IMG/VR virus record: IMGVR_UViG_3300033463_006479
Location: 64,001-128,000 of that record
Strand: one strand, 5' to 3'
Length of the DNA: 64,000 bases
Origin: a virus
Lineage: Duplodnaviria; Caudoviricetes
Below the pieces are notes generated by a model. That model had not been told where the DNA came from and searched no databases. It saw only the letters and a program-made list of their open reading frames with translations. The position numbers and the translations under genes were made by a program. Of this stretch, positions 2,550 through 52,495 are shown one piece after another. Positions within the stretch are counted from its first letter, which is position 1; the number at the start of each line of letters is the position of its first letter.

Positions 2550-3272
2550 TTATTTATACAAGTTGTTTTTCGGGTTTTTCTTTTTCTTGAATTTCGGCAT
2601 TTTGCTATTGTCTCTGGACATATATATATTTGCGAAATGCTCGCTGTTGTTCACTTTTCCAACATTCCAACCAGACAAGTCTTGGTCAAAAAACAACGCA
2701 CCTCTGAACATAGCTTCCATTGACAGCACATTGGAAACATCCCATTTGGAAATGTCTTGGTTAAAATTTCTGGCGGCAAAAAACATATATTTCATATTGC
2801 AAACATTTGACACATTCCATTTGGAAATGTCTTGGTCAAACAAACTTGTATTTGCAAACATCGCTTCCATATCTTTCACATTGGAAACGTCCCAGTTTGA
2901 AATATCATTATTGAAATTAGAACGACTGAATATAAATGACATATCTATTACATTTGACACATTCCATTTGGAAATGTCGCCGTTGAATTTGCAGTCAGCA
3001 AACATAAGCGACATACTCGTAACATTGGAAACATTCCAGTCCGATATGTCGCCATTGAACTGGTGCATATCATAGAACAGCTTGCTCATATCTGTTATAT
3101 AAGTAACACAGATGTCGTTGAGGTTGCATTCGTCTCCTTCGTTTGCAATCTTGGTTTTAATAATCTGTATGAGTTCATCCTTTGTTTTCGGATAATAACG
3201 GTAGTTCCGTTTCATACCAGACAGCCGTTCCTTTGACACTGGTCTTATGATAAGTCTGTTTGTGTTTTCCAT
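2550..3272 (-). CDS. BspA/DUF285-type LRR protein with N-terminal tag variant (RLIIRPVSKERL)
   Basis: ~24-aa repeats FNxDISxWxVSNVxxMxxMF; cap motif PKTKDEL..CNLNDI. Confidence 0.85.
   Translation of the reverse strand: MENTNRLIIRPVSKERLSGMKRNYRYYPKTKDELIQIIKTKIANEGDECNLNDICVTYITDMSKLFYDMHQFNGDISDWNVSNVTSMSLMFADCKFNGDISKWNVSNVIDMSFIFSRSNFNNDISNWDVSNVKDMEAMFANTSLFDQDISKWNVSNVCNMKYMFFAARNFNQDISKWDVSNVLSMEAMFRGALFFDQDLSGWNVGKVNNSEHFANIYMSRDNSKMPKFKKKKNPKNNLYK
2551..2558 (-). promoter_or_regulatory. T4-type late promoter TATAAATA
   Basis: Exact TATAAATA on minus strand ~50 nt upstream of the S1-like/KTSC/baseplate genes. Confidence 0.5.
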
Positions 3273-3273
3273 A

Positions 3274-3978
3274 CTATTTCATCTTTGGTCTTTTCCATCC
3301 GTTGAAGTCAAAGGAAAGTGGAGATTTTTTGAATATGTCGGTTGTTGCGGCCTTTTCAAGATTCCATTTTGATATGTCTTGGTTGAAACTTGAGTTGTAG
3401 AACATTCTGCTGGCCATTTTTACATTTGACACATTCCATTGGGAAATGTCTCGGTTAAACATTGAATGTGAGAACATATAGTCCATATATTCAACATTGG
3501 AAACATCCCATCTTGACAGACTGCCGTTGAACTGCGCAACGGAGAACATATAGCCCATATCGGTTACGTTGGAAACATCCCAGTCCGATATATCCTTGTT
3601 GAAAGCGGAATGGCAGAACATAGAACGCATATTTCTGACCTTTGACACATTCCATTGTGAGATGTCCCCGTTGAACTCGGACTCTTGGAACATATAGGAC
3701 ATATCTTTCACATTGCTGACATCCCATTGTGAAATGTCGCCGTCAAACATATGCGTTTTGTTTATCTGGTTGAACAGCCTTGACATATTTTTAATGCGAG
3801 AAACGTCTATGTCGTTGAGGTCGCAATGCACGCCCTCGTTCTCTATGCGTTCCGCAATTATCTCAATCAGTTCGTTTTCCCATCTTGGAAAATACTTGTA
3901 TTTCGATACGCCATTTGATTGAACTGGCTGTATGTTTAATTTCTCTGCTATAAAGTCTTTTAATTTAAGTATTATCAT
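3274..3978 (-). CDS. BspA/DUF285-type LRR protein, tagged (DFIAEKLNIQP)
   Basis: DUF285 repeats; tag at N-terminus. Confidence 0.85.
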   Translation of the reverse strand: MIILKLKDFIAEKLNIQPVQSNGVSKYKYFPRWENELIEIIAERIENEGVHCDLNDIDVSRIKNMSRLFNQINKTHMFDGDISQWDVSNVKDMSYMFQESEFNGDISQWNVSKVRNMRSMFCHSAFNKDISDWDVSNVTDMGYMFSVAQFNGSLSRWDVSNVEYMDYMFSHSMFNRDISQWNVSNVKMASRMFYNSSFNQDISKWNLEKAATTDIFKKSPLSFDFNGWKRPKMK

Positions 3979-3981
3979 AGT

Positions 3982-4764
3982 CTATTTGAATAATGGTTGT
4001 TTTTCTGGGTGATTGACAAGTGGAGACTCGTTGAACATATTGATATGTGTTTTTACGCTTCTGACATCCCACCCAGACAAGTCTTGGTCAAATTTATGTG
4101 TCATATTAAACATTTGCATCATATTCACAACACTACGGGTGTTCCATCCAGATATGTCGCTATTAAATTCTTCAGCACCATAGAACATAGATTCCATAGT
4201 TTGCACACTTGACACATTCCATTTGGAAAGATTGCCGTTAAATTCATAAGCATAACAGAACATACCCTTCATACTAATCACATTAGACACATCCCATTCC
4301 GATATGTCCCCGTTGAAACTGGATTCCGAAAACATACCTTCCATACATTTGACGTTGCTCACATTCCATCTGGAAATGTCGCCATTAAAAATGGATTGGC
4401 AAAACATATCGGTCATATCCTCAACATTTTTGACATTCCACATTGATATGTCGCCATTGAAGTCCGAACTTCTGAACATCATTTTCATATTGGTTACATT
4501 GCTGACATCCCATTCGGATATGTTGCCGTTGAAGTCGGAGGTGTAGAACAGTTCTTCCATATTGTCAATGTTGGAAACGTCTATGTCGTTCAAATCGCAT
4601 TCAGCCCCTTCTTTTTCAATTCTGTCTTGTATGATGGAATAAAGGTCTTCCCTTGATGTCGGATGATAATTATGAATACGCCGCATACCATAAAGCCTTG
4701 TCTTTGTGACTGGTTTTATGTTCAGTTTTTCGTTTATATATTTGTCGGACTTCAGTATTCTCAT
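3982..4764 (-). CDS. BspA/DUF285-type LRR protein, tagged (YINEKLNIKPVTKTRL)
   Basis: DUF285 repeats; tag at N-terminus. Confidence 0.85.
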   Translation of the reverse strand: MRILKSDKYINEKLNIKPVTKTRLYGMRRIHNYHPTSREDLYSIIQDRIEKEGAECDLNDIDVSNIDNMEELFYTSDFNGNISEWDVSNVTNMKMMFRSSDFNGDISMWNVKNVEDMTDMFCQSIFNGDISRWNVSNVKCMEGMFSESSFNGDISEWDVSNVISMKGMFCYAYEFNGNLSKWNVSSVQTMESMFYGAEEFNSDISGWNTRSVVNMMQMFNMTHKFDQDLSGWDVRSVKTHINMFNESPLVNHPEKQPLFK

Positions 4765-4767
4765 ATC

Positions 4768-5553
4768 CTATTTGAATATTGGTTGTTTTTCTGGCTGGTT
4801 TTCCAACGGGCAATCTTTGAACATATCCGTATATACCATAATGCTTTTGGTGTTCCATCCAGACAAGTCTTGGTCAAATGAAGATGCCTTTTCAAACATT
4901 TGCGTCATAGTTATGACATTTGACACATCCCATTTTGATATGTCACTGTTAAACTTTCTTGCCCCGTAGAACATATATGTCATAGTTTGCGACCTTGACA
5001 CATTCCATTTGGACAAATCCCCGTTGAACTTTTCGGCATAGCAGAACATACCAGTCATATCAAACACTTTTGACACATCCCATTTGGACAAGTCCCCGTT
5101 GAATTGTGATGTGTGGAACATTCCAGACATATATTTCACATTTGACACATTCCAATCGGATATGTCATTGTCAAACAAGGACAGCTTGAACATATCGGTC
5201 ATATTCTTCACTTTGCAGACATTCCATTTTGAAATGTCCCCTTTGAAAGATGAGCGGCTGAACATACATTCCATAGTCGTAACATTATGCACGTTCCATT
5301 GGGATATGTTTCCGTTGAAAGTTGATTCATAAAAAAGATGCGACATATCGTCAATGGCAGAAACATCTATATCGTTCAAATCGCATAAATCTCCTTCTGC
5401 TGCTATGCGGTCATCTATAATGCTTTTCAACTCAAACTTTGACTGCGGATAATACTTGTACTTATGCACACGCATACCAGCAAGCCTCGTTCTTGTAACT
5501 GGCTTGATGTTGAGTTTCTCGTTTATATATCGGTCGGCATTGAGTATTTTCAT
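4768..5553 (-). CDS. BspA/DUF285-type LRR protein, tagged
   Basis: DUF285 repeats; YINEKLNIKPVTRTRL. Confidence 0.85.
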   Translation of the reverse strand: MKILNADRYINEKLNIKPVTRTRLAGMRVHKYKYYPQSKFELKSIIDDRIAAEGDLCDLNDIDVSAIDDMSHLFYESTFNGNISQWNVHNVTTMECMFSRSSFKGDISKWNVCKVKNMTDMFKLSLFDNDISDWNVSNVKYMSGMFHTSQFNGDLSKWDVSKVFDMTGMFCYAEKFNGDLSKWNVSRSQTMTYMFYGARKFNSDISKWDVSNVITMTQMFEKASSFDQDLSGWNTKSIMVYTDMFKDCPLENQPEKQPIFK

Positions 5554-5559: not shown

Positions 5560-6198
5560 CTAATATCTGAAATTTGGTTGCAGCTCTTCCTCATATTGCA
5601 TTGGGCAGTTTTTGAATATGTCGTGGCGATGCCACACATTTCCAACCGACCATCTGGATAGGTCGCCTTTAAATATTGAATCGCAAAACATATACGACAT
5701 TTTCGTAACATTGCTCACATTCCAGTTGGAAATGTCGCCGTTGAAATCCGAATTTTGGAACATATTCTCCATATTTAAAACTTTTCCGACATTCCATTTT
5801 GATATGTCGCCATCAAAGTATGAATTGTAAAACATATATGACATATTTGTAACATTGCCAACATTCCAGTTGGAAATGTCGCCGTTGAATTTTGAGCTTT
5901 GGAACATACCAGTCATATTTTTCGCATTTCTGACATTCCATTCAGATATGTTTCCATCAAAATCCTTTAATGTGGAAATGGAAAACAAATATGAGAAGTT
6001 CGTTATGCAAGAAACATCAATGTCGTTCAAGTTGCAAAAAAAGCCATATTCTTCAATGTGGTTTTCTATGCAAACAATCAGTTCGCCTTTTGTTTTTGGA
6101 TGGTGTTTGTGTGGACGCAGTTCGGCCAGCCTTGTTTTTGAAACTGGCTTGATGCCAAGTTTTTCGTTTATATATCGGTCGGCATTAAGTATTCCCAT
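5560..6198 (-). CDS. BspA/DUF285-type LRR protein, tagged
   Basis: DUF285 repeats; YINEKLGIKPVSKTRL. Confidence 0.85.
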   Translation of the reverse strand: MGILNADRYINEKLGIKPVSKTRLAELRPHKHHPKTKGELIVCIENHIEEYGFFCNLNDIDVSCITNFSYLFSISTLKDFDGNISEWNVRNAKNMTGMFQSSKFNGDISNWNVGNVTNMSYMFYNSYFDGDISKWNVGKVLNMENMFQNSDFNGDISNWNVSNVTKMSYMFCDSIFKGDLSRWSVGNVWHRHDIFKNCPMQYEEELQPNFRY

Positions 6199-6223: not shown

Positions 6224-6235
6224 TATTTATAAATA
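6224..6235. promoter_or_regulatory. Overlapping bidirectional late promoter (palindrome TATTTATAAATA)
   Basis: TATAAATA on both strands between divergent tagged genes starting at 6198(-) and 6252(+). Confidence 0.6.
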
Positions 6236-6251: not shown

Positions 6252-6401
6252 ATGGAAATACTGAAATCAGAACAATATCTAAACAAGAAACTGAACATTA
6301 CTCCAGTAACAAAAACAAGGCTTGACGGATTTGCCAAACCTACTGTTGATGAACATACAAAAAAGTTTATAACAAGCAATGGGTTGGTAACAGTTTATTG
6401 A
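6252..6401 (+). pseudogene. Truncated tagged gene (MEILKSEQYLNKKLNITPVTKTRL...), ending at the tnpB element left end
   Basis: Tag present, no payload domain; stop lies just inside the element. Confidence 0.55.
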
Positions 6402-7861
6402 AAATCTAATGAAAACTACGAAAAACGTATAAAAACAAACCCGTATAAATATATTATAGTTTAATGCTATTTATATAATGAAACGAAAGTGGAGAGTCGT
6501 TTCAAAATAGAATAAGATATATACAGAGGTTTTATCCTTGTCGGTACTCTCCACATTACTACCACAAGTTTAATGCCTCTTTTTTATTGATATGTTGCGA
6601 GGAATCAAGGTAAGGTTATATCCGAACAAGGAACAGCAGGCAAGACTGAATCAAGTTCTTGGTTGTTACCGTTTTGTGTATAACAAGACGCTCGAACTCA
6701 AACGCAATGCTTATGATGAAGACAAAACAACTCTTGGATTAACTGACATTTCAAAATGGTTTCACGGAACATTATTGAAAGACGAGAACTACACTTGGTT
6801 GCAGGAGCAGAACACAAAGGTGATGAAGCAGTCAATCAGACAAATGCTTGACGCTTATTCAAAGTTTTTCAAACAACACAACGGATTTCCGAAGTTCAAA
6901 TCCAAGAAAGACAAGCAGTCAGCACTGTTTCCGTCAGAAGCGATTTCCAAACGCAACACGTTCAATGAAAGAAAAATAACGCTGACTCAAGACTTAAAGG
7001 ACATAAGATTCAGATGTTCGGACTTGTATTACAAGAGACTTCAAGACCACAAGGACAAGATAAGAAGTGCGACCGTTTCGAGAACCAAGAGCGGCAACTA
7101 CTTCTTATCCATCCTTGTTGACATCCCGCAGAATGAACTTATCAAGTTCAAGCATACCAAGCAATGCGTTGGCATTGACCTCGGAGTCAAGGATTTTGTA
7201 ATCACAAGTGACGGTGAGGTCTTTGAAAACAAACACTTTTTCAAGAAGCAAGAAAGAAAAGTCAAAAGATTACAGAGGCAGCAGTCAAGAAAACAGAAAG
7301 GTTCGCACAACCAAGAGAAACAACGTGTCAGAATCGCAAAGGCGTTTGAAAGACTGACCAATCAGAAAGACGCTTACATCCATTCGGTTGTAAATGCTTT
7401 GCTATCCTTGTATGACTTGGTTTGTATGGAGGACTTGAATGTTCAAGGAATGCTGAAGAACCACAAACTTGCAAAGGCAATCCAAGAAGTTGGTTTCTAC
7501 AAGTTCAAGCAGATTTTACTTGACAAGGCAAATGTAAATGACAAGCAAGTCGTGTTGGTTGACCGTTTCTATCCGAGCAGTAAGACCTGCCACACGTGTG
7601 GTTACATCAAGAAAGACTTGACTTTGAGCGACCGTGAATGGGTCTGCCCTATTTGTGGTGAACACCACGACAGAGATGTGAATGCAGCGATTAACATCTT
7701 GTGTGAAGGTTTAAGAATAATAGGTGTCCGTAGCACCGAATTTACGCTTGCGGACTGCCCAACTATGGATGACCGTCTGGCAACAGACCTAAAAAGTAGT
7801 GGCAGGTTGAAACAAGAAAGAAGGACTAATAATTCCAGTTTTATTAGATTTTTCTATACGG
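6392..7861 (+). mobile_element. Non-autonomous TnpB-only element (IS607/IS200-605-like)
   Basis: Left end after AACAG is homologous to the left end of the element at 59813; imperfect inverted ends (gaaaatctaatgaaaact / agttttattagattttt); no tnpA; right boundary approximate. Confidence 0.6.
6479..6586 (+). ncRNA. Conserved structured RNA (two hairpins with complementary loops, then U-tract) upstream of tnpB
   Basis: Near-identical copy at 59620-59726(-) with compensatory changes in paired regions. Confidence 0.6.
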
Positions 7862-7893
7862 TTCGTTTGAATTTGACAGATAATATTGTTTAA
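6592..7893 (+). CDS. tnpB: TnpB RNA-guided endonuclease (IS605 OrfB type)
   Basis: HTH start (KVRLYPNKEQ..GCYRFVYN), RuvC-I GIDLGVKD, RuvC-II EDL, Zn ribbon CHTCG..CPICG, RuvC-III DRDVNAAINI. Confidence 0.92.
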   Translation: MLRGIKVRLYPNKEQQARLNQVLGCYRFVYNKTLELKRNAYDEDKTTLGLTDISKWFHGTLLKDENYTWLQEQNTKVMKQSIRQMLDAYSKFFKQHNGFPKFKSKKDKQSALFPSEAISKRNTFNERKITLTQDLKDIRFRCSDLYYKRLQDHKDKIRSATVSRTKSGNYFLSILVDIPQNELIKFKHTKQCVGIDLGVKDFVITSDGEVFENKHFFKKQERKVKRLQRQQSRKQKGSHNQEKQRVRIAKAFERLTNQKDAYIHSVVNALLSLYDLVCMEDLNVQGMLKNHKLAKAIQEVGFYKFKQILLDKANVNDKQVVLVDRFYPSSKTCHTCGYIKKDLTLSDREWVCPICGEHHDRDVNAAINILCEGLRIIGVRSTEFTLADCPTMDDRLATDLKSSGRLKQERRTNNSSFIRFFYTVRLNLTDNIV

Positions 7894-9306: not shown

Positions 9307-9341
9307 AAATCCCCCAAGTATAATGCTTGGGGGATTTTTTT
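9307..9341 (+). terminator. Intrinsic terminator
   Basis: aaatcccccaag-tataatg-cttgggggattt followed by T-tract, abutting TATAAATA at 9341-9348. Confidence 0.7.
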
Positions 9342-9371
9342 ATAAATAATGTATTGTTATTTAATGCTATT

Positions 9372-10727
9372 ATGACATACGATTATTATATAAATTTGTG
9401 CGAAAACGATATATCATTTTATAAAGAAATTACATTTAGAAAGAATTTTGTTGTTGAGTATAATGAGATACAAAAAATGTCATTTCCTTCGGAATTTACA
9501 TTTAATCAAAAACTATATCATTATTTGCATAACGACACAGATTTGAAACTCGGAATTTGTTATTGCGGAAATCGTTGTAAATTTGTAAACTTAAAAACTG
9601 GCTATTTAACTTATTGTTCAAGAAAATGTATGGCCAATTCAAATAATGTTTCTGATAAAAAGAAGCAGACTTTAAATGAGCATTATGACGTTGATAATCC
9701 TATGCAATCTAAAATTATTAAAAACAAGGCCATTGAAACAAATATACAAAAATATGGTAATAAATGTACACTGCATAGTGAATTGATAAGTGAACGTGTT
9801 AATAAAATTTTTGAAGAAAAATATGGCGGGCATCCTTTAAAATCAAAATCTGTTCGTGAAAAACAGAAAACCACTTGTCTTGAACGATATGGCGTTGAGC
9901 ACATTTCACAGTCAGATATTGTGAAAGAAAAGAAAAAGATGACTTCAATGGAACGATATGGTGTTGAATATACATTTCAGTCCAATGCGGTTAAAGAGTC
10001 TATAAAGAAAACAAACAATGAGAAATATGGTGTTGATAATCCGTCACAAGCAAAATGTGTTAAAGATAAAAAACGTCATACATTTCTTGAAAAATATGGA
10101 GTGGAAAATCCATTTCAGTCTGAAGAAATAAAAGATAAATCAAAAAACACTTGTATTGAAAAATATGGTGTAGAACACGCATCAAAGTTAGATGCTGTGA
10201 AATTAAAGATAAAAACGACAACATTAGAACGATATGGTGATGAATCATATATACGAACAGAAGGATATGTCGATAAAGTTAGAATACGATTCAAGGAGCT
10301 TATAGAAACGGCAAACAAAAAACATATGAAAACAACTTCTGGCATATCAAGAATTGAAATACTTTTTTATGATTATCTTGTTGAAAAATTCGGAGAAAAT
10401 GATGTTGTTTACAATTATATGTCAGAATTGTATCCTTACAGATGTGATTTCTATATAAAATCCTATGATTTGTATGTTGAACTAAATGCACATTGGTCGC
10501 ACGGTGGTCATCCGTTTGATGAAAACAGCCAGACTGATATTGAAAGACTTAATTATTGGAAATCAAAAAATTCAAAATACTATAATATCGCAGCAAAAGT
10601 GTGGTGCGAATCTGATGTTAAGAAACGGCAATGTGCTAAAGAAAACAATTTGAATTACATTGAAATTTTTGACAACGACATAAAAACCGTTATAGATACA
10701 TTTGAAAAGAAACTGGTGATGTTTTAA
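9372..10727 (+). CDS. Homing-endonuclease-like protein (C-x-C-G Zn site, tandem T-x2-E(K/R)YGV repeats, C-terminal PD-(D/E)XK/very-short-patch-like nuclease)
   Basis: Repeated EKYGVENPFQSEEIK units; C-terminal YRCDFYI..YVELNAHWSH; AT-rich; own late promoter. Confidence 0.6.
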   Translation: MTYDYYINLCENDISFYKEITFRKNFVVEYNEIQKMSFPSEFTFNQKLYHYLHNDTDLKLGICYCGNRCKFVNLKTGYLTYCSRKCMANSNNVSDKKKQTLNEHYDVDNPMQSKIIKNKAIETNIQKYGNKCTLHSELISERVNKIFEEKYGGHPLKSKSVREKQKTTCLERYGVEHISQSDIVKEKKKMTSMERYGVEYTFQSNAVKESIKKTNNEKYGVDNPSQAKCVKDKKRHTFLEKYGVENPFQSEEIKDKSKNTCIEKYGVEHASKLDAVKLKIKTTTLERYGDESYIRTEGYVDKVRIRFKELIETANKKHMKTTSGISRIEILFYDYLVEKFGENDVVYNYMSELYPYRCDFYIKSYDLYVELNAHWSHGGHPFDENSQTDIERLNYWKSKNSKYYNIAAKVWCESDVKKRQCAKENNLNYIEIFDNDIKTVIDTFEKKLVMF

Positions 10728-10763: not shown

Positions 10764-11666
10764 TCAGAATAACGATTTTTGTGAAACGAGTTCCTTTATT
10801 CTTTGCAAAGATGTTTTATGGTATGCCTCATCTTTTTCAATGGCGATATAATCACGTTTCAGACTTATCGCCGAAAGTTGTGTGCTGCCGCAACCAGCAA
10901 ACGGGTCAACCACCAAATCGCCTTCATTGCTGCTTGCCGATATGAGCCGTTTTATAAGTTTGAGCGGTTTCTGTGTCGGATGGTATCGTTTTTCTTCGTA
11001 GAAGTCTATGTCAGTCCAGACATCAGTAAGCCCCATTTGCGGATTGAACGTCTGTGCGATTTTTGAATACGGCAGGTCAAACTCCAGTATTTCCGACAAC
11101 TTGTTCCAAAGTTCTTCTGTCGGGAATTGCTCGCAAACATTCTTGCCAGTATATATGCTCCACATACCTCCGCCGTTTGTCTTTACACCGAGAGCCTCGT
11201 TTATTTGTTTGGAAGTGAGTCCGAGTGCGTTCTGTCGTTCTTTAAGAAACGGCTTTATCTTTTTCTTGTTGTCCTTGATTATGAACAGTATGCTTTCCGT
11301 TACATTGGGGAACAACTTGTAATTCTTTGTAGCCCTTCCAGAAACGGAACGCATACCTTTGTCTATTACAATCTGCTGGCGAAGTTCAAGACCGAGGCTT
11401 TCAAGATGAGGTATTAGATGGGCAAGCGTTCTGAAATATCCGAAACAATAGAACGAGCCGCCATATCGTAGTATTCTTGAAACCTCTTTAATCCAAGCCA
11501 GACACCAGCCGATGTATTCAAGCTCGGTTCTCCATTGGTAATCCCAAGATTCACCGACAACCTTCCAATACGGAGGGTCAGCAACAACGAGGTCTGCGCA
11601 GCCAGAATCAATGTCCTGCATTGTTTCAATGCAGTCCCCAAGTATTGTGGTGTTGCGTTCAATCAT
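10764..11666 (-). CDS. DNA methyltransferase (N6A/N4C, beta class) with inserted HTH-like segment
   Basis: DPPY, HPTQKP, DPFAGCGST motifs. Confidence 0.9.
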   Translation of the reverse strand: MIERNTTILGDCIETMQDIDSGCADLVVADPPYWKVVGESWDYQWRTELEYIGWCLAWIKEVSRILRYGGSFYCFGYFRTLAHLIPHLESLGLELRQQIVIDKGMRSVSGRATKNYKLFPNVTESILFIIKDNKKKIKPFLKERQNALGLTSKQINEALGVKTNGGGMWSIYTGKNVCEQFPTEELWNKLSEILEFDLPYSKIAQTFNPQMGLTDVWTDIDFYEEKRYHPTQKPLKLIKRLISASSNEGDLVVDPFAGCGSTQLSAISLKRDYIAIEKDEAYHKTSLQRIKELVSQKSLF

Positions 11667-11997
11667 AATAATCTACGACAAATTTGGTTTTTCCGATAGT
11701 TTTTGTAAATCCGACATTTTTGTTCTCATTCCGTTTGTTTAGAATAAGAACACTTTTCGGAATGCAGTTTTTGTCTATTGGTGTTCCGTCAAGATTGACC
11801 AGATTTCCGTTATCGTCAAGTTTGAACGGATGAGGTTCGCCGTCATTGTCCTCATACACCGCACCGATTGCATTCGGATGCTTGTCCGACAAAACAACGT
11901 TCTCGTAAATCTTGACCAGTTTTGCGAATTTATCATCAACAAACTTGTTACGCATTGATTTGAGTTGTGTGTTTGTGATTGGTTTTATGTCCAGCAT
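11659..11997 (-). CDS. Hypothetical protein beginning with the mature tag (MLDIKPITNTQL)
   Basis: 112-aa ORF right after the CRISPR trailer, overlapping the MTase start. Confidence 0.6.
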   Translation of the reverse strand: MLDIKPITNTQLKSMRNKFVDDKFAKLVKIYENVVLSDKHPNAIGAVYEDNDGEPHPFKLDDNGNLVNLDGTPIDKNCIPKSVLILNKRNENKNVGFTKTIGKTKFVVDYYD

Positions 11998-16229: not shown

Positions 16230-16278
16230 AAATTGATGGTTTATGTGGTTTATATATGAGTTACTTATTTTTTCTGTA

Positions 16279-24455: not shown

Positions 24456-24457
24456 GT

Positions 24458-34049: not shown

Positions 34050-34424
34050 TTATAATAGCGAATCCGCTATTGGTTTAATCATCTGGTAATAATATGTTTC
34101 TTCAAACTTGCACTTGCTGTGTGTCCTTACATATTTGTCGCACCACTCGTACAAATCAGCACCGACAGCACCAGTATAAATGACTCCGTTGCTGGCCATA
34201 GCACACAAGTTTTCAAAAAGCGTTCTTTTTTCCAAAGGCCATTCCGCAACAACAGAATACGGCACATTAAACAACGGGCAATAAATGCCAACTGAAGAAT
34301 GAGTCCCACGTCTTGAACGTTCAGCTATGATATTGGCCGCATTGGTTACACGTTTCATCAATTCATCTTTGCTTGATTGCGTGTAAACTGGTTGTTCGGA
34401 TGTTGCGTTTTTGTTTTCTGTCAT
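34050..34424 (-). CDS. Hypothetical protein
   Basis: Packed operon ORF. Confidence 0.55.
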   Translation of the reverse strand: MTENKNATSEQPVYTQSSKDELMKRVTNAANIIAERSRRGTHSSVGIYCPLFNVPYSVVAEWPLEKRTLFENLCAMASNGVIYTGAVGADLYEWCDKYVRTHSKCKFEETYYYQMIKPIADSLL

Positions 34425-34912
34425 AACCTTATGTCAAATATCTGGTTGTTGTATTTTTCAAATATTTTTCTGACTATCTCCCTATTTTCTTCCGTGTCAA
34501 AACTTCTGTCATAGTCGCCGCCGCATTGAACAAGACTTTCAATCGCTATGATATAAAAAGTGTTTGTTTTATTTTTTGCAATAGTCTTGTCAAGTTCAAC
34601 AATGTCAATCTCGTTCAAGCGTGTTTTTGTAATAGGCTTTATTTCCAGTTTTCCACCATTTCTTTTAGGTTCTTTATAGTCTGGATTTTTGGCAAGAACT
34701 GTTATGGTAGAAAAAGGTGAGCCTTCACCGCTTTTCCATTTTAGTATATTATACGCTTGTTCAAGCGTGAGCGGTTTTTTTGGAAGTCCGCCAAATATAT
34801 CTTCAGTTCTGAATGATACTTCAAATCTATCATCTCTGACCGATGTTGATGGCGCATTATTGTATTGTTGCAATATTTTCAAATAGTCTTTAAAGTAATC
34901 TTTAGGTGGCAT
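34421..34912 (-). CDS. Hypothetical protein with internal tag (KLEIKPITKTRL)
   Basis: Motif at mid-protein, not preceded by E. Confidence 0.6.
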   Translation of the reverse strand: MPPKDYFKDYLKILQQYNNAPSTSVRDDRFEVSFRTEDIFGGLPKKPLTLEQAYNILKWKSGEGSPFSTITVLAKNPDYKEPKRNGGKLEIKPITKTRLNEIDIVELDKTIAKNKTNTFYIIAIESLVQCGGDYDRSFDTEENREIVRKIFEKYNNQIFDIRL

Positions 34913-40020: not shown

Positions 40021-40418
40021 ACGTTCTTTGTTTTTTGGTTGTTATACATATCGGTTGGTGCTTCCAACGCAAGACCTTTCTCGATGAGGTGTCTGTAATC
40101 AAAATGTCGGGCATTAAGCCAGTCAAGTGCTACATAGGCGTTATGTGAGAACGTCCATTCTTCCGAGCCGTTGTGCGTGATTTCGTGCAACTCGTTTCTT
40201 TCGTCATCCGTCATACTTGACATAGGCCGCAAGAATGGTTTTATTTCATTGACACACCAAGTGTGGAAATAACGTCTGTCTATGTTTTCCCTGCTTAATT
40301 CCGTATCTTTGAGGACAAATCTGTCGCCAAGATAAGTTTCACATATAACGCCATACGGAAGTCTGGCGCACAAGTCGCACTTTACGAGTTCCTTTTCTTC
40401 TAATGTCATCACTCTCAT
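40017..40418 (-). CDS. Conserved Bacteroidetes-phage hypothetical protein
   Basis: DLCARLPYGV..IKPFLRPMSSMT..DWLN..HFDYR.LIEKGLALEAP. Confidence 0.65.
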   Translation of the reverse strand: MRVMTLEEKELVKCDLCARLPYGVICETYLGDRFVLKDTELSRENIDRRYFHTWCVNEIKPFLRPMSSMTDDERNELHEITHNGSEEWTFSHNAYVALDWLNARHFDYRHLIEKGLALEAPTDMYNNQKTKNV

Positions 40419-40440: not shown

Positions 40441-40860
40441 TTATTTGTTCTGATGTTTTCCGAGAACTGCGCTTATTGAACAGATGCCGTCAATGATTGT
40501 TTCGACTTCTCCAGTTTCTGAATTGTGCTCATTATGGTAATATCCGTTTAACTCAAATTCAATGCTGTTCGGATTTTTTTCTATGATAGATTCCAATACC
40601 TTTCCGTTAAATGTTCCAACTGGTGTCACATTGGCCATCATATCTCCGTTATCATCAACCCACATATCATTTACTTTGCAAGCCATTGCCGATAGCGGAA
40701 CATAACCAGCTGGAATTGATACTGGATGTTCAAGTGTGCCTATGGCTTTGCCATCTTTAAGAAATTTCTCTATGGCGTTTTTCAAAACGTCTTTTGGAAT
40801 TTTGGTGTTGCCACTATTGACATTGCACCAGACTTTTGCCGTGTAGGTTTTATTCTCCAT
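40441..40860 (-). CDS. T4 gp21 prohead-protease-like protein, apparently lacking the catalytic Ser motif
   Basis: N..N...P..VL..AI..F...KAIGTLEHP.....VPL.....V..MW......MA......T..GKVL; no GVSSRG. Confidence 0.5.
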   Translation of the reverse strand: MENKTYTAKVWCNVNSGNTKIPKDVLKNAIEKFLKDGKAIGTLEHPVSIPAGYVPLSAMACKVNDMWVDDNGDMMANVTPVGTFNGKVLESIIEKNPNSIEFELNGYYHNEHNSETGEVETIIDGICSISAVLGKHQNK

Positions 40861-42184
40861 CGTTCCAAGTTTTGTATTTTCCGTCATATTCATCGCAAGT
40901 TCCGAGAAGGTTTTTCGTGTCGTTGCTGTATGGCACGCATTGTGTGAATGCGCCAGTGACACACATATAGTATTTTATGTCACCAACGTCCTCGCAATAC
41001 ATAAAGAAATCACAAACCCATACATCATCAAAATAATTTCGGACAAGAACCTTGTCATACGGACGCAGTTCTTCAGACGAAAACGGCATAGGCGTTATTG
41101 GTGCGTTGAAACCTATTGCTGAACACTCGCCTTCCCCAAGGCTCAACACATTATACCCGAATTGGTCAACTGATGAAACCAAGTATAAATCGCCATTATA
41201 TTGGATTCTGTCGCCCTTTTTGTATTTTGGAATGCCGCAGTTGCTTCTCCAAACAATATGCTCGTTGGCATCCCATATCCAGTCGTTTTTCTCAAGCATA
41301 GAAAGAATCTCCTTTTTCGTATCAATGGATGCGTATTCAAAAGAGCATTCGTTCTTTTTGCGATGAACATTGTGTTTTTCCCAATCGGTCACAACATCAA
41401 GTCTGTGGTTTGTAACTCCGTATCTTGCATAAAAATGAATATATCCGCATTTGTCAATTTCCTTGAATATGAAAATTGTGTCATTGTCGCAAAGAATGTC
41501 GCCGTCCCTTGCATCGTCAATAGTCCATAGGCGGAATAGGTTTGACGGAAGATTGAACTCACGTCCGAACTCGTCAATCAGATTCAGCTCAGTCAATGCG
41601 GTCTGCGACTTTATGTAAAGCGGTGTTCCTTTTTTAAGAAACGCCTTTTCGCCGCTGCGTGTCCTTTCGGTGTCAATGTCTTTGACACACACAACACATT
41701 TGTTTGCTTTAGCACCGACAAAATCGCAAAGGTCTGCGTTCCAGTAGAATCCGTATGCAGCGGCCTTTTCAAAAAACTCGGCACGCTCCACATTGTTGGC
41801 GTATCTGGAATTTTTGAAATTAAACTTGCCTTTCGGCACATCATTTCCAACAAGTGTCGGATATGCTGCAAGCACGCAGTCTTTTGAAATTGCGTATGTC
41901 TTGCCATCACCAGCAACGATTACAGAGCCTACGCTTTTTGGCATAACAATACTCTGCCAGTCGCCTTCCCAATACTTGATGTCTTTTGCTGGAAACAGCA
42001 CGCATTCCCCGCTGTAATCAATCTGTCCGAAAACATTGACGGAAAACATTTCGCCGTTGCTCATTTTTTTAAATTCAAGGTTTCCGTCATCGAGCGTTTT
42101 TTGGTAGCGCACATTGCCGAAGCAAGTTGAATACAATTCAACTCCAGATGCCGCACCCATCAATAAATCTCTAATGCTTGTCAT
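40850..42184 (-). CDS. Multi-domain Bacteroidetes-phage hypothetical protein
   Basis: LYST.FG, GECVLFPAK, WTIDDARDGDIL, L.PYDKVLVR..W..DFF, QCVPY...K.LLGT modules. Confidence 0.65.
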   Translation of the reverse strand: MTSIRDLLMGAASGVELYSTCFGNVRYQKTLDDGNLEFKKMSNGEMFSVNVFGQIDYSGECVLFPAKDIKYWEGDWQSIVMPKSVGSVIVAGDGKTYAISKDCVLAAYPTLVGNDVPKGKFNFKNSRYANNVERAEFFEKAAAYGFYWNADLCDFVGAKANKCVVCVKDIDTERTRSGEKAFLKKGTPLYIKSQTALTELNLIDEFGREFNLPSNLFRLWTIDDARDGDILCDNDTIFIFKEIDKCGYIHFYARYGVTNHRLDVVTDWEKHNVHRKKNECSFEYASIDTKKEILSMLEKNDWIWDANEHIVWRSNCGIPKYKKGDRIQYNGDLYLVSSVDQFGYNVLSLGEGECSAIGFNAPITPMPFSSEELRPYDKVLVRNYFDDVWVCDFFMYCEDVGDIKYYMCVTGAFTQCVPYSNDTKNLLGTCDEYDGKYKTWNDGE

Positions 42185-45997: not shown

Positions 45998-46005
45998 TAT
46001 AAATA
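45998..46005 (+). promoter_or_regulatory. T4-type late promoter TATAAATA
   Basis: Upstream of terminase. Confidence 0.65.
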
Positions 46006-46024: not shown

Positions 46025-47956
46025 ATGGCTAAACAACAAGGACAAGACGCATCACATACCACAGTATGGAGCACGAGAGCCATACAACAATTTACAGATG
46101 ATTTGGACAATGGAATAGAAAGGAAGGATAATCCTTATTATTTCGGTGATGTGCATTTAAGAAAGCCAAATCTTATGTTTGAATATACGCAACACGAAAT
46201 AGATGAACTTGTAAAATGCAAGGCCGATGTGAAGTTTTTTTCAAACTCTTACGCCTATACAATGTCGCCGACAAACGGAGCACTTGAACAGATAACGTTG
46301 CGTGATTATCAAGAAGAATTGCTTGATACAATAGATGAAAATAGATTTACAATAATTTTGTCAAGCAGACAAAGCGGAAAAACCGTTTCATCATCAATAT
46401 ATCTTGCTTGGTTTTTGTTGTTTAACTATGACAAAACGGTTTTTGTGTGTGCAAACAAGGAGAAAACAGCAAGGGATGTCATAAAAAAAGTGCAGGACGT
46501 TATTATGAATGTGCCGTTTTTTATGAAGCCAGGCATAACCAAATGGGGAAGTCTTGAATGCACATTTGATAATGGTTGCCGTCTTATTGGTGAATCAACA
46601 ACCGAGAGAAGCGGTATCGGTTTTACCATACATTGCTTATATCTTGATGAGTTTGCTCACGTTGATAAAAATATAATTGAACCTTTTTACAGCAATATAT
46701 ATCCGACAGTTTCATCATTGTCAGATAGCAAAATAATTATAACATCAACACCAAATGGTATGAATTTGTTTTATCAATTATATGATGCTGCAACAAAAGG
46801 TATAAATTCATATAAACCATATCGTATTGACTGGTGGCAAGTACCGAATTGGGATAAGAAAAACAAGTGCTGGGTGAAACGTGACCAGAAATGGATGGAT
46901 ATGATGATAAAGGACTTGGGCGGTGCTGACGAGGAACTTGGCAGGGAAAGGTTTGGTGCTCAATACGGAAACTCGTTCTTGAGCACTGGTAATTTGCTGC
47001 TCGGACCAAACGCTTTGAAGATACTTGAAGAATCCCTTGAAGTTTTCAACAAGTCCGATGACCTATGGGTGTTTGATGATTACGATATAGAGGAAGCCCG
47101 TGATATTGTATGGAAACCAGACTTTGACCCATCACGTGCGAAATACACAAACGACCAGTTCCTTTTCAGCATAGATATTGCGGAGGGCAACGGCGGTGAT
47201 GATTCTGTCATAAACATTTTCAGAATGCGTATAATGGACGAGGACAAATGGAACAATGTCATTTCTCCAGATTCAATCTATGATTTTATCGGACTGGAAC
47301 AAGTCGGCATATTCGCATCAAACAAAATGCACTTGCAGAAATTCGCAAAAATGCTTTACATTCTTTCCCATATTGTGTTCAATCCAGATAATGTGAAAAT
47401 GCTTCTTGAGTGGAATGCGTTTGGCGGTGAGGTGTATAATCATTTGAGCAACGTGTTCGGTGAGAAGAATGATTTTGACCCATCTGTTGTTTTGAAATTC
47501 AAGCGTGCTGCGGATAGAAAAACAGCAGAACCAGGACTTAAACTGAACAAGGACAACAAACTTATATATTGCCAGAATACGAGAAAACATATAACTTCTG
47601 GCCGTATGATTCTGCACGAGCCAGAAACGATAGGCCAGTTCAATCTTTTCGGTCGTGTCGGTTCTTCATACGCAGCCATAACAGACCACGATGACCGTGC
47701 TATGAGTTGTGTTGATGCGAATGCGTTTTTTGACAATAGGGATTTCAAATGGATTGCCGACATTATACTTGAGGACAATCCAGAACTTGAAAACAAACTT
47801 TACAAGCATTTGTACGGGGATGATTATGAGCCAGTGCAGGAAGTCAAACCAATGTTCGGATACGAGCATATCGGAAACAACAGTCCGATAATACCGAATG
47901 ACACAAGTGCGGTAAGCCCGTATTCCCAGTTGAAAGGTATGCCGTTGCATTATTAG
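46025..47956 (+). CDS. Terminase large subunit (T4 gp17-like)
   Basis: LRDYQ, Walker A SRQSGKT, Walker B LYLDEFAH, ITSTPNG, nuclease DIAEG.GGD.S, HDD.AM. Confidence 0.93.
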   Translation: MAKQQGQDASHTTVWSTRAIQQFTDDLDNGIERKDNPYYFGDVHLRKPNLMFEYTQHEIDELVKCKADVKFFSNSYAYTMSPTNGALEQITLRDYQEELLDTIDENRFTIILSSRQSGKTVSSSIYLAWFLLFNYDKTVFVCANKEKTARDVIKKVQDVIMNVPFFMKPGITKWGSLECTFDNGCRLIGESTTERSGIGFTIHCLYLDEFAHVDKNIIEPFYSNIYPTVSSLSDSKIIITSTPNGMNLFYQLYDAATKGINSYKPYRIDWWQVPNWDKKNKCWVKRDQKWMDMMIKDLGGADEELGRERFGAQYGNSFLSTGNLLLGPNALKILEESLEVFNKSDDLWVFDDYDIEEARDIVWKPDFDPSRAKYTNDQFLFSIDIAEGNGGDDSVINIFRMRIMDEDKWNNVISPDSIYDFIGLEQVGIFASNKMHLQKFAKMLYILSHIVFNPDNVKMLLEWNAFGGEVYNHLSNVFGEKNDFDPSVVLKFKRAADRKTAEPGLKLNKDNKLIYCQNTRKHITSGRMILHEPETIGQFNLFGRVGSSYAAITDHDDRAMSCVDANAFFDNRDFKWIADIILEDNPELENKLYKHLYGDDYEPVQEVKPMFGYEHIGNNSPIIPNDTSAVSPYSQLKGMPLHY

Positions 47957-47967: not shown

Positions 47968-47975
47968 TATAAATA
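47968..47975 (+). promoter_or_regulatory. T4-type late promoter TATAAATA
   Basis: Upstream of tagged genes 47997 and 48668. Confidence 0.6.
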
Positions 47976-47996: not shown

Positions 47997-48662
47997 ATGA
48001 ATATACTTAAAACGGATAGGTTTATAAGCGAGAAACTTTTAATAGCACCGATGTCAAAAACAAGGCTTGCTGATGTCGGTGCGAAAACACGTGAAGAAAA
48101 GAGATTGCTTGAAGCAACGTTTGATGTGATATTCATTGATGGATTGAATTATATGGAACTTGGTGTGCTTGCGCTTGGATTGCTGGACTATTCATATAAG
48201 ACAAATGTAACAAAATACGGTGACACGCATATTTGCATTTCCGTAAAAAATGATGACTGCGATGTTTATGGTGAAGAATGGAGTCCGTTTACACACCCAA
48301 GCGGATTGCCAGTTGCCTTAAATGATGAGCAGATGCAGATACTTTCCGAATACGGATTGAGATATGAATATGACAAAGGGACTGCTTGGATGGGTGTATC
48401 AGATGGCGTGAAATTGACAAGTCTGCTTGCATCTTATATTAGAACAAATTTGAAAAAGCATTTGCATTTGATAAATCCGAATGAAGTCAATGTTGTATGC
48501 AGCACAAACAACGGCGGTTCAATTTGTATATCAACAAACAAGCAGTCGGACAAAAACAGAAAAATAGAAGATGATTCGTTTTATGTTGATTTTATGTATA
48601 GTCTGATATGCATACAAGATTTTTTCAAGGAAATGTCCGATAAAATTATGGAAAACAAATAA
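47997..48662 (+). CDS. Tagged hypothetical protein
   Basis: MNILKTDRFISEKLLIAPMSKTRL + unknown domain. Confidence 0.75.
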   Translation: MNILKTDRFISEKLLIAPMSKTRLADVGAKTREEKRLLEATFDVIFIDGLNYMELGVLALGLLDYSYKTNVTKYGDTHICISVKNDDCDVYGEEWSPFTHPSGLPVALNDEQMQILSEYGLRYEYDKGTAWMGVSDGVKLTSLLASYIRTNLKKHLHLINPNEVNVVCSTNNGGSICISTNKQSDKNRKIEDDSFYVDFMYSLICIQDFFKEMSDKIMENK

Positions 48663-48667: not shown

Positions 48668-49060
48668 ATGAACATATTGAAAGCCGACAATTACATTTCG
48701 GAGAAACTCGAAATTAAACCTATGACTGCAACAGCATTGAACAAAATAGGTGGAATTAACTATTCAGTTATTGCTTGGTGTGATGATGATGCTGGTTTTG
48801 ATGAAATAAATTTTGACGGAACGTGTCTTGTTTTAAATGAATTTGTATCAATTTTACAAAAAGTTGCCAATGAATTAAACGCACAAGTTATATTATCTGT
48901 ACCAGATGTTGGCAGTACGAATTGCACGTATGAAATTATTGGCAGTGATAAAAAAGAAATTACATACGGCGTGTTTACCGTTATGAACAACAAAGATGCG
49001 GAAAAAATATTGCACGATATATCAGACACCATACAAGGCAGCAGGATAACCGTGCAGTAA
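48668..49060 (+). CDS. Tagged hypothetical protein
   Basis: MNILKADNYISEKLEIKPMTATAL + unknown domain. Confidence 0.75.
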   Translation: MNILKADNYISEKLEIKPMTATALNKIGGINYSVIAWCDDDAGFDEINFDGTCLVLNEFVSILQKVANELNAQVILSVPDVGSTNCTYEIIGSDKKEITYGVFTVMNNKDAEKILHDISDTIQGSRITVQ

Positions 49061-49069: not shown

Positions 49070-49711
49070 CTATCTGAATGTTGGCTGGTATTCTGGATGG
49101 TCTGCAAGCGGGCAGTCAATACACAATGCATCAATGCTTGTAACGCTTGACACATCCCATCCAGATATGTCTTGCAAGAAACTTTTAGCACCTTTGAATA
49201 TGCCGTCCATACTTTTTACACTTGACACATCCCATCCAGATATGTCTTGGTTGAAACTTTCTGCGTGGCAAAACATACCTTCCATATGCTCAACTCCAGA
49301 CACATCCCATTTGGATATGTCGCAGTTGAAATCAAGGGCATAGTCAAACATATAACACATATTTTTAACTTTTGAAACATTCCATTTTGAAATGTCTCCG
49401 TTAAAATGTGTTGTGGAAAACATACAATACATATTAGCAACATTGCTGACATCCCACTTGGAAATGTCGCCATTGAACTTTATACAATGAAAAAGATAGG
49501 ACATATCATTTATATCAGAAACGTCTATATCGTTCAAATCGCAATTTTCGCCTTCATTTTCAATTCTATATGATATAAGTTCTTCAAGTTCCTTTGTTGT
49601 TTTCGGAAAATACTTGTACAAAAGACTTTTTTTGTTGGAAAGTCTTGCTTTTGTAATCGGTTTTATTGAAAGTTTCTCGCTTATATAGTTTTGCGAATCA
49701 AGTATTCTCAT
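49070..49711 (-). CDS. BspA/DUF285-type LRR protein, tagged
   Basis: YISEKLSIKPITKARL + DUF285 repeats; late promoter 49727-49734(-). Confidence 0.85.
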   Translation of the reverse strand: MRILDSQNYISEKLSIKPITKARLSNKKSLLYKYFPKTTKELEELISYRIENEGENCDLNDIDVSDINDMSYLFHCIKFNGDISKWDVSNVANMYCMFSTTHFNGDISKWNVSKVKNMCYMFDYALDFNCDISKWDVSGVEHMEGMFCHAESFNQDISGWDVSSVKSMDGIFKGAKSFLQDISGWDVSSVTSIDALCIDCPLADHPEYQPTFR

Positions 49712-49734
49712 AAATGTTTATTTCTATATTTATA

Positions 49735-50778: not shown

Positions 50779-50797
50779 ATCTGATGTTTTTGTGACG

Positions 50798-50865
50798 CAA
50801 AAATACAAAAACATCCAATACAATGTAATGTGTTTTTGAAAAAGTTTTCAACAAAGTTATCAACA
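50798..50865 (-). promoter_or_regulatory. Early promoter copy 7
   Basis: caaaaata 50798; ttttcaaca 50845, ttatcaaca 50857. Confidence 0.7.
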
Positions 50866-51405
50866 CTAAAACAATGCCGTTTTCTTTTCTGTCTTTGGTT
50901 TAGGCTCGTATAAGTATTTGATGAAATCCCCAAGATGTCGGTCGTTCAAATCAATTCTTCTCACATTGTCCGCATTCTGCATTTTCCGCATAAGTGTTTT
51001 TTCAATATAATTGTTCTGTTCAAACCTTGTTGTTGTCGGGCAGCTTCGCTTCAATTCACTCCATCCTTGGTCGTTTGTTATAAAAAGCGTGTTGTCTTTG
51101 AAAAACTGTGCATAAAGAATTTTGGTGTTTTCGCCATTTTGTTTTTTCGCCCATTCCAACGCCTCAAAATCTGCCTTGTCCATAACAAGGTCTCCGTATT
51201 TGGTGCTGTTGAAATCACGTTGTTTCAGATTAAACAAATAGTTGCATCCGTTTTTCAATCCTTTCACATCATATCCGCAACCTTTATGTCCTTTCACAAC
51301 ACCTTCAAAATTGTCGTATGCTATCATAAGCATCATAAATAATTTGATGCTGTCATTGTCGCCACTAACATTGTGGTCTTCCTTGTTCTGCGTTTTTGTA
51401 TTCAT
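50866..51405 (-). CDS. Hypothetical protein, possible PD-(D/E)XK fold, ends in ALF
   Basis: GYDV....Y.F.LKQR...S..Y.D...K pattern; weak. Confidence 0.5.
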   Translation of the reverse strand: MNTKTQNKEDHNVSGDNDSIKLFMMLMIAYDNFEGVVKGHKGCGYDVKGLKNGCNYLFNLKQRDFNSTKYGDLVMDKADFEALEWAKKQNGENTKILYAQFFKDNTLFITNDQGWSELKRSCPTTTRFEQNNYIEKTLMRKMQNADNVRRIDLNDRHLGDFIKYLYEPKPKTEKKTALF

Positions 51406-51464
51406 ATTCAAATAATATCGTATATACCAATATAATAAAAAACTTGAAAATATGCAACAGCACT

Positions 51465-51472
51465 TATAAATA
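51465..51472 (+). promoter_or_regulatory. T4-type late promoter TATAAATA
   Basis: Upstream of 51497. Confidence 0.6.
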
Positions 51473-51496
51473 ATATCGGAACAAATATAGAATAAT

Positions 51497-52495
51497 ATGA
51501 GGATATTAAGGTCAAGCCAGTTTATAGCCGAGGGTGCTGGTGCTGGATATAAAGTTAAATTTGAAGGTTTGAAATTTGATTTAGCCACAGCTGAATTTAC
51601 TGGGGAACGCATAATGATTGACGATGAGGAATATTGGAAAATCAAAATAGGCATTAAGCACGATTTTGTTGATAGATGGGAAACTGAAAGTTACTATGAA
51701 TGTATGACATCAGACGGAGATGATAATTTCTTCTTTTATGACGGTGACAATGACCGTTTGATTGATGGCGGTGTATCGTTTTGGGTTGTGTCAAAAACGG
51801 AATTTCTTGAGTATGTGTCAAGAAATTATGAGTTTCAAGTGGATGAAAAACTTGATATAAAACCAATAACTGGGAGCTGGTTGAGGTCAACGGCACAAGC
51901 ATCAGCCGAAATGAGAAAGAAGATAATAAACTATACACAATATTTAAGAGAATTTTTTGATGACGAATGCGGCGATTCCAGAGACCTTGAATTTAATTAT
52001 GGATGTGGTTGGGGACACGTAAATCTTCCAAATCCGATTGTGCTTGGAGGCGATGTGAAAGACAAGGAATATCCATTTATTGAGTATTCTGATGGTTATG
52101 GAAATCTTTATATAAACTGTTATGAATTGCAAATAAACTGCGAGCAAATTGTTAATGACATAAATTATTTTTATGAATATGTTGATTATGCCAATGGAGA
52201 ATATGACACATATCACGATGATAATGATGGTATGGATTATTTAAAGGTTTCAGATGATAGTATTTTATCAGAAATAGATTCAGAATTTGATGAAAACGAA
52301 TATGAAAAATTGTGCAAGGATGCTATTGAAAGACTGAAAAACAAATATGGCATCCCATTTTATATGTTTGATATAAACGGAAGGCACGTGTATATTGAAG
52401 ACCAATTAGAAAACAGAAAAAACTTTAACAGTATAGAATTTGATGTCAAGAATGAGCAAGAAGATATTATAAAGAAACTAAACGGAAATTCATAA
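51497..52495 (+). CDS. Acidic protein with CTS-like start (MRILRSSQFIAE) and internal tag (VDEKLDIKPIT)
   Basis: Sequence motifs; late promoter. Confidence 0.75.
   Translation: MRILRSSQFIAEGAGAGYKVKFEGLKFDLATAEFTGERIMIDDEEYWKIKIGIKHDFVDRWETESYYECMTSDGDDNFFFYDGDNDRLIDGGVSFWVVSKTEFLEYVSRNYEFQVDEKLDIKPITGSWLRSTAQASAEMRKKIINYTQYLREFFDDECGDSRDLEFNYGCGWGHVNLPNPIVLGGDVKDKEYPFIEYSDGYGNLYINCYELQINCEQIVNDINYFYEYVDYANGEYDTYHDDNDGMDYLKVSDDSILSEIDSEFDENEYEKLCKDAIERLKNKYGIPFYMFDINGRHVYIEDQLENRKNFNSIEFDVKNEQEDIIKKLNGNS

Follow-up and report, generated by a model that had tools for sequence, protein, structure and literature searches.

The stretch of DNA analysed here (the window) spans 64,000 nucleotides, bases 64001-128000 of the 192,463-base IMG/VR record IMGVR_UViG_3300033463_006479, which belongs to an uncultivated huge phage of the class Caudoviricetes and has a CheckV completeness of ~70%. 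Genes were called with a simple open reading frame (ORF) caller, and the resulting set of 265 ORFs in the record is crude. Many of the encoded proteins share a 24-residue tag at or near their N terminus, composed of a 12-residue leader with the consensus M-(R/K)-I-L-x-(S/T)-x-x-(Y/F)-I-(N/S)-E and a second half, the 12-mer KLxIKPVTKxRL, which starts mostly at residue 13, directly after the leader. A first-pass annotation, made from the sequence alone, had listed 21 ORFs of the window as carriers of the 12-mer, proposing that the leader takes them into the prohead and is cut off after its Glu. Each was re-checked and a recognisable version was found in every one: the 12-mer is exact in the ORFs at 3982, 5560, 21803, 23454, 24458 (twice), 27567, 34421 and 49070, has one to three substitutions in 2550, 4768, 6252, 11659, 22320, 25491, 26521, 26993, 28060, 47997 and 48668, and is degenerate in its C-terminal half in 3274. 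The usual position stated for it, directly behind the leader, holds for most ORFs; exceptions are 51497, where the two halves lie 105 residues apart, and 34421, where the motif is internal and has no Glu before it. A loose pattern of the tag finds 20 matches in the window, against a mean of 0.17 in triplet-shuffled windows, and 81 in the whole record, where 66 of the 265 ORFs bear the tag and four or five more have degenerate forms (~70 genes, about a quarter). A profile of the tag, as called for by the first-pass annotation, has 79 matches in a related phage, IMGVR_UViG_3300031994_000001 (G001; 413,021 bases, rated complete, with a 90% identical capsid protein). Numbering the last leader residue, Glu, as 0, the Met, Lys+1, Leu+2 and Pro+6 are invariant in 53 equally spaced copies, and at least 92% of these also share each of Ile-9, Leu-8, an aromatic at -3, Ile-2, Glu0, Ile+4 and Leu+12. 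A Sec or lipoprotein secretion signal was rejected, the tag being hydrophilic, with no more than two uncharged hydrophobic residues in a row.

The tagged genes are arranged in clusters preceded by a short DNA motif, TATAAATA. A predicted late operon on the minus strand begins with 5560-6198 (full tag and DUF285 repeats), directly behind a minus-strand TATAAATA, and continues with 4768-5553, which has the same composition by tag match and payload grouping, and with 3982-4764, whose full 24-residue tag precedes DUF285 repeats (PF03382, E 2e-61). It is followed by 3274-3978, a tagged DUF285-type protein, and by the last gene of the operon, 2550-3272, a DUF285 repeat protein by payload comparison that has lost the leader and carries the 12-mer at residue 6 in an R-L-I-I-R-P variant. 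At 6224-6235 there are two divergent, overlapping boxes (6228 on the plus strand and 6224-6231 on the minus strand), which together read as the 12-base, palindrome-like TATTTATAAATA; the same arrangement occurs at genome positions 40151-40161 and 148588-148598, serving operons on both strands. On the plus strand the boxes face 6252-6401, a 49-residue remnant of a tagged gene in which Lys replaces the cut-site Glu. This remnant may have been cut by a mobile element, and an IS-type (insertion sequence) transposase gene lies directly after it at 6592-7893 (plus strand; phrog_506, E 7e-116).

The longest tagged series is on the plus strand and starts with a TATAAATA at 20058 followed by a T4-type portal gene at 20094-21788 (Portal_T4, E 6.8e-66; phrog_213), which heads an operon running into tagged genes. 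Directly 3' of the portal gene is 21803-22333 (full tag and DUF285), then 22320-23390, a full tag with a long DUF285 array (PF03382, E 1e-120), and, behind a second TATAAATA at 23431, the full-tag DUF285 gene 23454-24455. The next two genes encode two-module proteins with second, internal 12-mers that the first-pass annotation had missed. In 24458-25486 the tag is followed by a module of ~135 residues, an internal L-N-E, the second 12-mer at residue 170 (nt 24965-25000) and DUF285; in 25491-26516 the module is followed by I-S-E, the 12-mer at residue 166 (nt 25986-26021) and a FISUMP domain. The same ~135-residue type of module, with a weak DUF7663 match, is found in 26521-26988 behind a six-residue leader ending in I-H-E and the 12-mer, an 11-residue leader variant and the 12-mer precede FISUMP in 26993-27556, and 27567-28070 joins a full tag to an orphan payload that matches nothing in Pfam or PHROG and has a tagged homologue in G001 at 56% identity. 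The large terminase gene (46025-47956, plus strand) stands behind a TATAAATA at 45998 and is followed by another at 47968 and by two full-tag genes with orphan payloads, 47997-48662 and 48668-49060, both on the plus strand; both the portal and the large terminase are thus near tagged clusters, as had been claimed. A full-tag DUF285 gene on the minus strand, 49070-49711, has its own minus-strand TATAAATA at 49727-49734. Finally, a plus-strand TATAAATA at 51465 precedes 51497-52495, a gene with a split tag: a leader ending in F-I-A-E, a G-A-G-A-G stretch, module A, an internal V-D-E with the 12-mer at residue 118 (nt 51848-51883), and module B. This split tag is unchanged in seven homologues, with identity down to 51%. 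The four letters FIAE, reported earlier for 3274 and 51497, are present verbatim in both.

Three proteins keep only the 12-mer, as had been noted, and are encoded on the minus strand in TATAAATA-free gene blocks, without the cut-site Glu. The orphan protein of 11659-11997 begins directly with the 12-mer, that of 28060-28527 has it at residue 5, and that of 34421-34912 has it internally at residue 88 with G-G in place of the Glu. Conversely, the gene at 61433 on the minus strand, behind a TATAAATA at 62359-62366, encodes the similar leader ascribed to it, in a longer variant of 16 residues that ends in H-I-N-E and has no 12-mer behind it. The two halves are therefore separable: they are split in 51497, the leader occurs alone in 61433 and in the genome ORF 186702, and leaderless copies are found elsewhere. 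Those counted as leaderless are 2550, 11659, 26521 (with its six-residue start) and 28060.

The payloads were compared all against all with BLAST after cutting the proteins at their tags. They comprise a large single-linkage cluster joining DUF285 repeats with the ~135-residue module, a second group of 23 resembling leucine-rich repeats (LRR), a FISUMP trio, another trio and about 12 singletons, so that the tag is indeed portable over unrelated payloads, with at least four BLAST-unrelated groups besides the singletons. With 139-397 bits in 3982, 22320 and 24458, the DUF285 matches exceed the Pfam gathering threshold of 25, and those to FISUMP exceed theirs as well (PF09603, 38.9 bits in 25491 and 53.1 in 26993 against 33.9). 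Several window payloads have no match in Pfam or PHROG, and a Foldseek search of the PDB with the model of 51497 returned nothing at E <0.001. The median isoelectric point (pI) of the payloads is 5.2 and that of leader-only proteins ranges from 4.3 to 6.1.

The TATAAATA boxes that the first-pass annotation took for late promoters are all present, and those ahead of the terminase gene and of 61433 are additional to them. The record contains 59 copies, of which 52 are within the ~8% of the sequence that is outside ORFs, and most are 20-36 bases ahead of a start codon on the same strand. Among the genes behind such a box are those for the portal, large terminase and capsid protein, the tagged operons and all leader-only genes. 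When a gene is counted as downstream if a box lies within its own same-strand run, 55 of the 58 full-leader genes are downstream of TATAAATA, compared with 63 of 192 untagged genes (Fisher p 2e-18), which upholds the proposed link between the full tag and operons shared with head genes. Two of the three exceptions may be behind a variant promoter, and the third arises from wrong ORF choices around 24458-25486. The link recurs in G001, where 41 of 53 tagged and 208 of 507 untagged genes are behind the box. Judging by this promoter motif, the tagged genes are predicted to be expressed late, together with the head genes; the term early-type, applied to genes such as 11659, means that TATAAATA is absent and nothing more. 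A gp55-type late sigma factor (phrog_234) is detected by PHROG profile in G001, in the huge phage LR756500.1 and in Sphingomonas phage PAU, and tblastn with T4 gp55 over four genomes found nothing. The 30 bases upstream of 53 tagged genes, taken genome-wide, are A-rich and devoid of a Shine-Dalgarno motif. Such start contexts are usual for Bacteroidota hosts and suggest a host of this type, in agreement with the relatives PAU and Lak.

The leader resembles the capsid-targeting sequence (CTS) of phage T4, MKTYQEFIAE (PMC8442874). Amber-suppressor genetics assigned residues 4 and 7 of the T4 sequence to targeting, and 8 and 10 to processing; an Asp at position 10 prevents cutting and leaves targeting intact (PMC9026906). 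Counted back from the cut, residues 4, 7, 8 and 10 are P7, P4, P3 and P1. The N-terminal copies match the T4 sequence at the key residues, as the first-pass annotation had supposed, with Tyr or Phe at P4 in 53 of 53, Ile at P3 in 49 and Glu at P1 in 52. Closer forms precede the same 12-mer elsewhere: MKTYEEYIEE, in the outside proteins P0016 and P0150, shares 7 of 10 residues with the T4 10-mer, and MLNYQEYINE, in a G003 gene, shares 6 of 10. Viral and metagenome scans for the contig of P0016 gave only distant or 1-kb relatives. In about 12 true internal copies the Met-x-Ile-Leu start and the P4 aromatic are lost, and all of them except 34421 keep a hydrophobic P3 and the P1 Glu; the putative processing positions thus appear to survive where targeting would no longer be needed. 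Of the 197 instances counted in 150 outside proteins, 192 have Glu at P1 and 181 (92%) have I/V/L/F/M at P3, which is not the S/A/G-x-E cut motif of phiKZ and SPN3US-type phages (PMC5694885).

By gene content the phage builds a T4-type prohead, the record encoding a Gp23-family capsid protein (PF07068, 96.7 bits) and a gp20-family portal (PF07230, 218 bits). The first 51 residues of the capsid protein contain the candidate sites I-N-E|S, I-K-E|S and L-N-E|S, after which 50 residues ahead of the conserved core are free of Glu, the next one coming well beyond the position aligned with residue 94 of T4 gp23. This pattern agrees with an N-terminal domain that would be cut off at sites of that type. 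These candidate sites are not followed by a 12-mer; therefore, if they are used, the 12-mer would not be needed for cutting. The gp21 homologue to which the first-pass annotation assigned the cleavage was found neither in the window nor in the 192-kb record, where the only S77-like sequence is the sub-threshold ORF 40441-40893 on the minus strand (150 residues; PF03420, 19.5 bits against a cut-off of 27; phrog_207, E 2e-4). A genuine S77 protease is encoded in G001 by a 647-residue ORF at 290916-292859 on the minus strand (Peptidase_S77, 48-49.5 bits, above cut-off), with the motifs G-E-L-D-H-P and I-S-S-R and a TATAAATA 41 bases upstream. Twelve 14-residue repeats in tandem are fused to it, with D-Y-L-A-E at the end of each and K-L or Q-L after that, and the run closes with N-A-G-A-G-A-G, similar to the G-A-G-A-G behind the leader of 51497. 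We read these repeats as a probable internal scaffold that would offer the enzyme many cut sites of its own, each set in the Y-(I/L)-x-E|K-L context seen in the tag. Beyond them the protein continues into a long, helical-looking tail.

ORF 40441-40893 was rejected as a working prohead protease. It has the histidine motif G-T-L-E-H-P and lacks the S-S-R serine motif where I-S-S-R-A-A-G of the G001 enzyme aligns. G001 holds a 40% identical ortholog of it besides the real protease, so that it is to be regarded as a diverged paralogue, of the sort described for SPN3US and relatives (PMC5694885). Sequence searches of the PDB, with this ORF or the capsid protein as query, yielded no usable hit. Since the record is incomplete and the G001 protease gene is far from the blocks shared by the two genomes, we expect the S77 protease of this phage in the missing part of its genome. 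Other genes of the window include a second, longer transposase-like ORF at 57971-59632 (minus strand, E 1e-25), a homing endonuclease-like gene at 9327-10727 (plus strand; phrog_3339, E 3e-35) close to a TATAAATA box among late genes, and an 814-residue ORF at 13899-16343 (minus strand) with no match in Pfam or PHROG.

The distribution of the two halves differs among phages. A tag profile built from 52 N-termini and searched over 1.84 billion cluster representatives matched 178 proteins at E <=0.001 and 53 at 1e-10, almost all from residue 1 and all of them metagenome proteins, on contigs of up to 223 kb; the 178 come from diverged phages with different GC content. Three IMG/VR records gave 79, 23 and 19 matches, and there was none in LR756500.1, PAU, Lak-A1, LR756504.1 or T4. 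Likewise, 50,697 GenBank phages gave no hit, either by megablast with the portal-to-DUF285 stretch or by tblastn with the 34-residue tag. The 12-mer is limited to a narrow clade. LR756500.1, the nearest deposited huge phage (portal 50% identical), has 32 of 622 ORFs starting with M-K-Y-I-(K/L)-E-Y-E-E-F-(I/L/V)-x-E, without the 12-mer, and PAU (portal 32%) has 19 ORFs starting with M-K-T-(L/I)-x-x-L-Y-E, often followed by K-L-N-E and also without it. The PAU family surrounds the genes for the portal (gp147), the protease (gp151), the scaffold (gp152, itself a member) and the capsid (gp156), and two of its members, gp142 and gp154, were annotated by the depositors as 'internal capsid protein'. 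A literature search found no paper describing the leader families of LR756500.1 or PAU. Their leader-only families suggest that the leader is old and widespread in this phage group, the 12-mer being a recent, clade-specific addition. These phages belong to the same broad group as the one studied here and have the same kind of leader ending in hydrophobic-x-Glu; unlike it, they have no 12-mer, smaller families and payloads that are mostly small orphan proteins.

Regarding the second half of the tag, the 12-mer follows every presumed cut and would therefore form the new N terminus of every released piece. It is basic, with a mean charge of +2.5, on acidic cargo. Its hydrophobic core between basic residues fits the general pattern of Hsp70-binding peptides. 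The presence of the 12-mer on non-late proteins suggests a partner that would be available in the cell early in infection. Our preferred reading of the 12-mer is that it serves as a handle after maturation.

Taken together, we propose that the first 10-12 residues would be a T4-type capsid-targeting propeptide that takes late-made proteins into the core of the assembling prohead, where the S77 (gp21-type) protease of the phage would strip it off, with the cut placed behind the Glu of aromatic-(I/V/L)-x-E|K. Between modules this presumed cut site recurs without the targeting residues, so that multi-module proteins would come apart within the head. The 12-mer (net charge ~+2.5) would stay as the N terminus of each released cargo, for the most part acidic domains of binder type (two LRR kinds, FISUMP and orphans), and would act after maturation by holding the cargo on the DNA, by leading it out via the tail or by docking it, in the newly infected cell, on a shared partner. 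Docking in the infected cell would fit the 12-mers on leaderless proteins from non-late genes. This combination of a targeting propeptide cut after Glu with a post-maturation handle is, in our judgement, somewhat likelier to be right than wrong. The feature itself is real, T4-type capsid targeting in an altered form is a plausible mechanism for it, and the head of this phage is probably loaded with dozens of binding proteins. A bolder version can be offered only tentatively, as possible and rather doubtful: a two-step address code in which the leader would load ~70 different binder and multi-module proteins into the head and cleavage would expose the 12-mer on each piece as an exit or capture signal, seized for instance by a host chaperone or a phage hub as the N terminus leaves the tail; the same hub would gather the leaderless early proteins, and a large and fast-changing arsenal of binders would enter the cell ahead of gene expression.

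Several observations weigh against the targeting proposal. Neither a homologue of the G001 protease nor, with the phrog_234 profile, a late sigma factor was found in the 192,463-base record (~70% complete). DUF285/BspA-like LRR and FISUMP domain types usually occur on bacterial surfaces. The payloads are acidic and show nothing of the small, highly basic character of the T4 internal proteins, so that calling these binder-type domains 'effectors' remains a guess. Twelve strictly conserved residues downstream would be superfluous for a plain cut site. In number, the ~70 cargo species exceed the ~50 head proteins reported for SPN3US (PMC7411985). The payloads also show no specific depletion of (I/L)-x-E sites (z -1.0), and since a control motif behaves alike we judge this uninformative rather than contrary.

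Two further readings explain the tag without any sorting function. The shared 72 bases could be kept alike by recombination or gene conversion at a cassette-shuffling site, the peptide being functionless, as the many tandem paralogues and the near-uniform use of some codons (ATA for both Ile residues, AAA for Lys) might suggest; yet several synonymous codons are in use for the conserved Leu, Tyr, Glu, Ile, Val and Arg, pairs of copies agree at 77% of first and second codon positions and at 56% of third positions, and the peptide is kept in the 178 cluster representatives. Conservation acts on the peptide, not on the DNA, and this explanation is very improbable. We give even less credence to the motif being an integral structural element, such as a cap strand, of one domain family, which the first-pass annotation had named as one outcome that would overturn its own proposal. 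In its favour, DUF285 proteins are frequent among the carriers and the AlphaFold2 model of 24458-25486 shows a short helix where the 12-mer ends, but in that model both tags (residues 1-32 and 153-174) have a predicted local distance difference test score (pLDDT) <50, compared with 96-98 in the DUF285 part. Similarly, residues 1-18 and 114-143 of 51497 are unstructured (pLDDT <50) beside two folded modules, and there a whole module separates the halves of the tag. With all four modelled copies disordered and the payloads so diverse, the tag is not a strand of one domain family, a reading that comes close to being refuted.

The remaining alternatives do assign a function to the peptide. As an anchor, its 24 residues would bind one structural partner and hold a library of binders outside the virion, on the capsid, neck or fibres, for adhesin display. 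Surface-type payload families and predicted late expression alongside structural genes agree with such a role, and a conserved N-terminal anchor with a variable C-terminal binder is usual in phage receptor-binding proteins; however, the leader matches the T4 internal targeting sequence and no known anchor, the internal copies retain exactly the hydrophobic-x-Glu positions, and the Y-L-x-E|K-L context recurs in the G001 protease's own extension. Moreover, the sister phages put the leader alone on small proteins beside protease and scaffold genes, and ~70 different species would need one shared docking site, all of which makes the anchor unlikely. Alternatively, the 12-mer could dock its carriers onto a hub protein inside infected cells, without any link to the virion, with the leader as a separate removable cap or stability element. 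This would account for the 12-mers without leader or cut-site Glu on the TATAAATA-free gene products 11659, 28060 and 34421, and for a clade-restricted 12-mer beside a widespread leader, but not for the location of 55 of the 58 full tags in late operons with head genes, and it leaves the resemblance to the T4 CTS and the internal cut-site pattern unexplained. We therefore consider it improbable as a full account; the docking role as such may be compatible with the targeting proposal, as the function of the second half.

The targeting proposal can be placed beside known systems. With the T4 CTS/gp21 system (IPI-III, Alt) this phage has in common a short N-terminal propeptide with an aromatic P4, Ile or Leu at P3 and Glu at P1, unrelated cargo and predicted late expression, besides the gp20-type portal and gp23-type capsid and, in the complete relative, the S77 protease and gp55-type sigma factor. 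It differs from T4 in having ~70 such genes instead of a handful, 12 conserved residues after the cut, internal copies joining modules, and a predicted cargo of acidic binder-type repeat domains instead of small basic proteins. In phiKZ, 201phi2-1 and SPN3US there are, as proposed here, dozens of head-internal proteins cut after Glu by a gp21-related protease, paralogue families sharing N-termini, several cut sites per propeptide and a diverged protease paralogue (PMC5694885), whereas the cut motif is S/A/G-x-E, the propeptides often exceed 100 residues, no common portable 24-residue tag exists and the lineage is another one. As for the bacterial DUF285/BspA-like and FISUMP proteins, they share the payload domains above Pfam thresholds, but the phage copies bear the tag where a secretion or lipoprotein signal would be expected in the bacterial members.

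What is new here concerns the clade limits of the 12-mer, the leader-only families of the sister phages, the status of 40441-40893, the split tag of 51497 and the repeat array of the protease. Comparison across T4, PAU, LR756500.1 and this clade suggests an old leader to which the 12-mer was added recently, and a partner of the 12-mer can be searched for. Capsid-borne protein delivery has so far been a matter of a few T4 proteins and of the phiKZ group. If the proposal is true, such delivery can fill a quarter of the genes of a huge phage while resting on a simple, portable code, which would provide a sequence rule for predicting virion cargo in metagenomes and a short tag by which foreign proteins could be packed into phage heads, and would help to explain the use of many orphan genes and of large capsids in huge phages.

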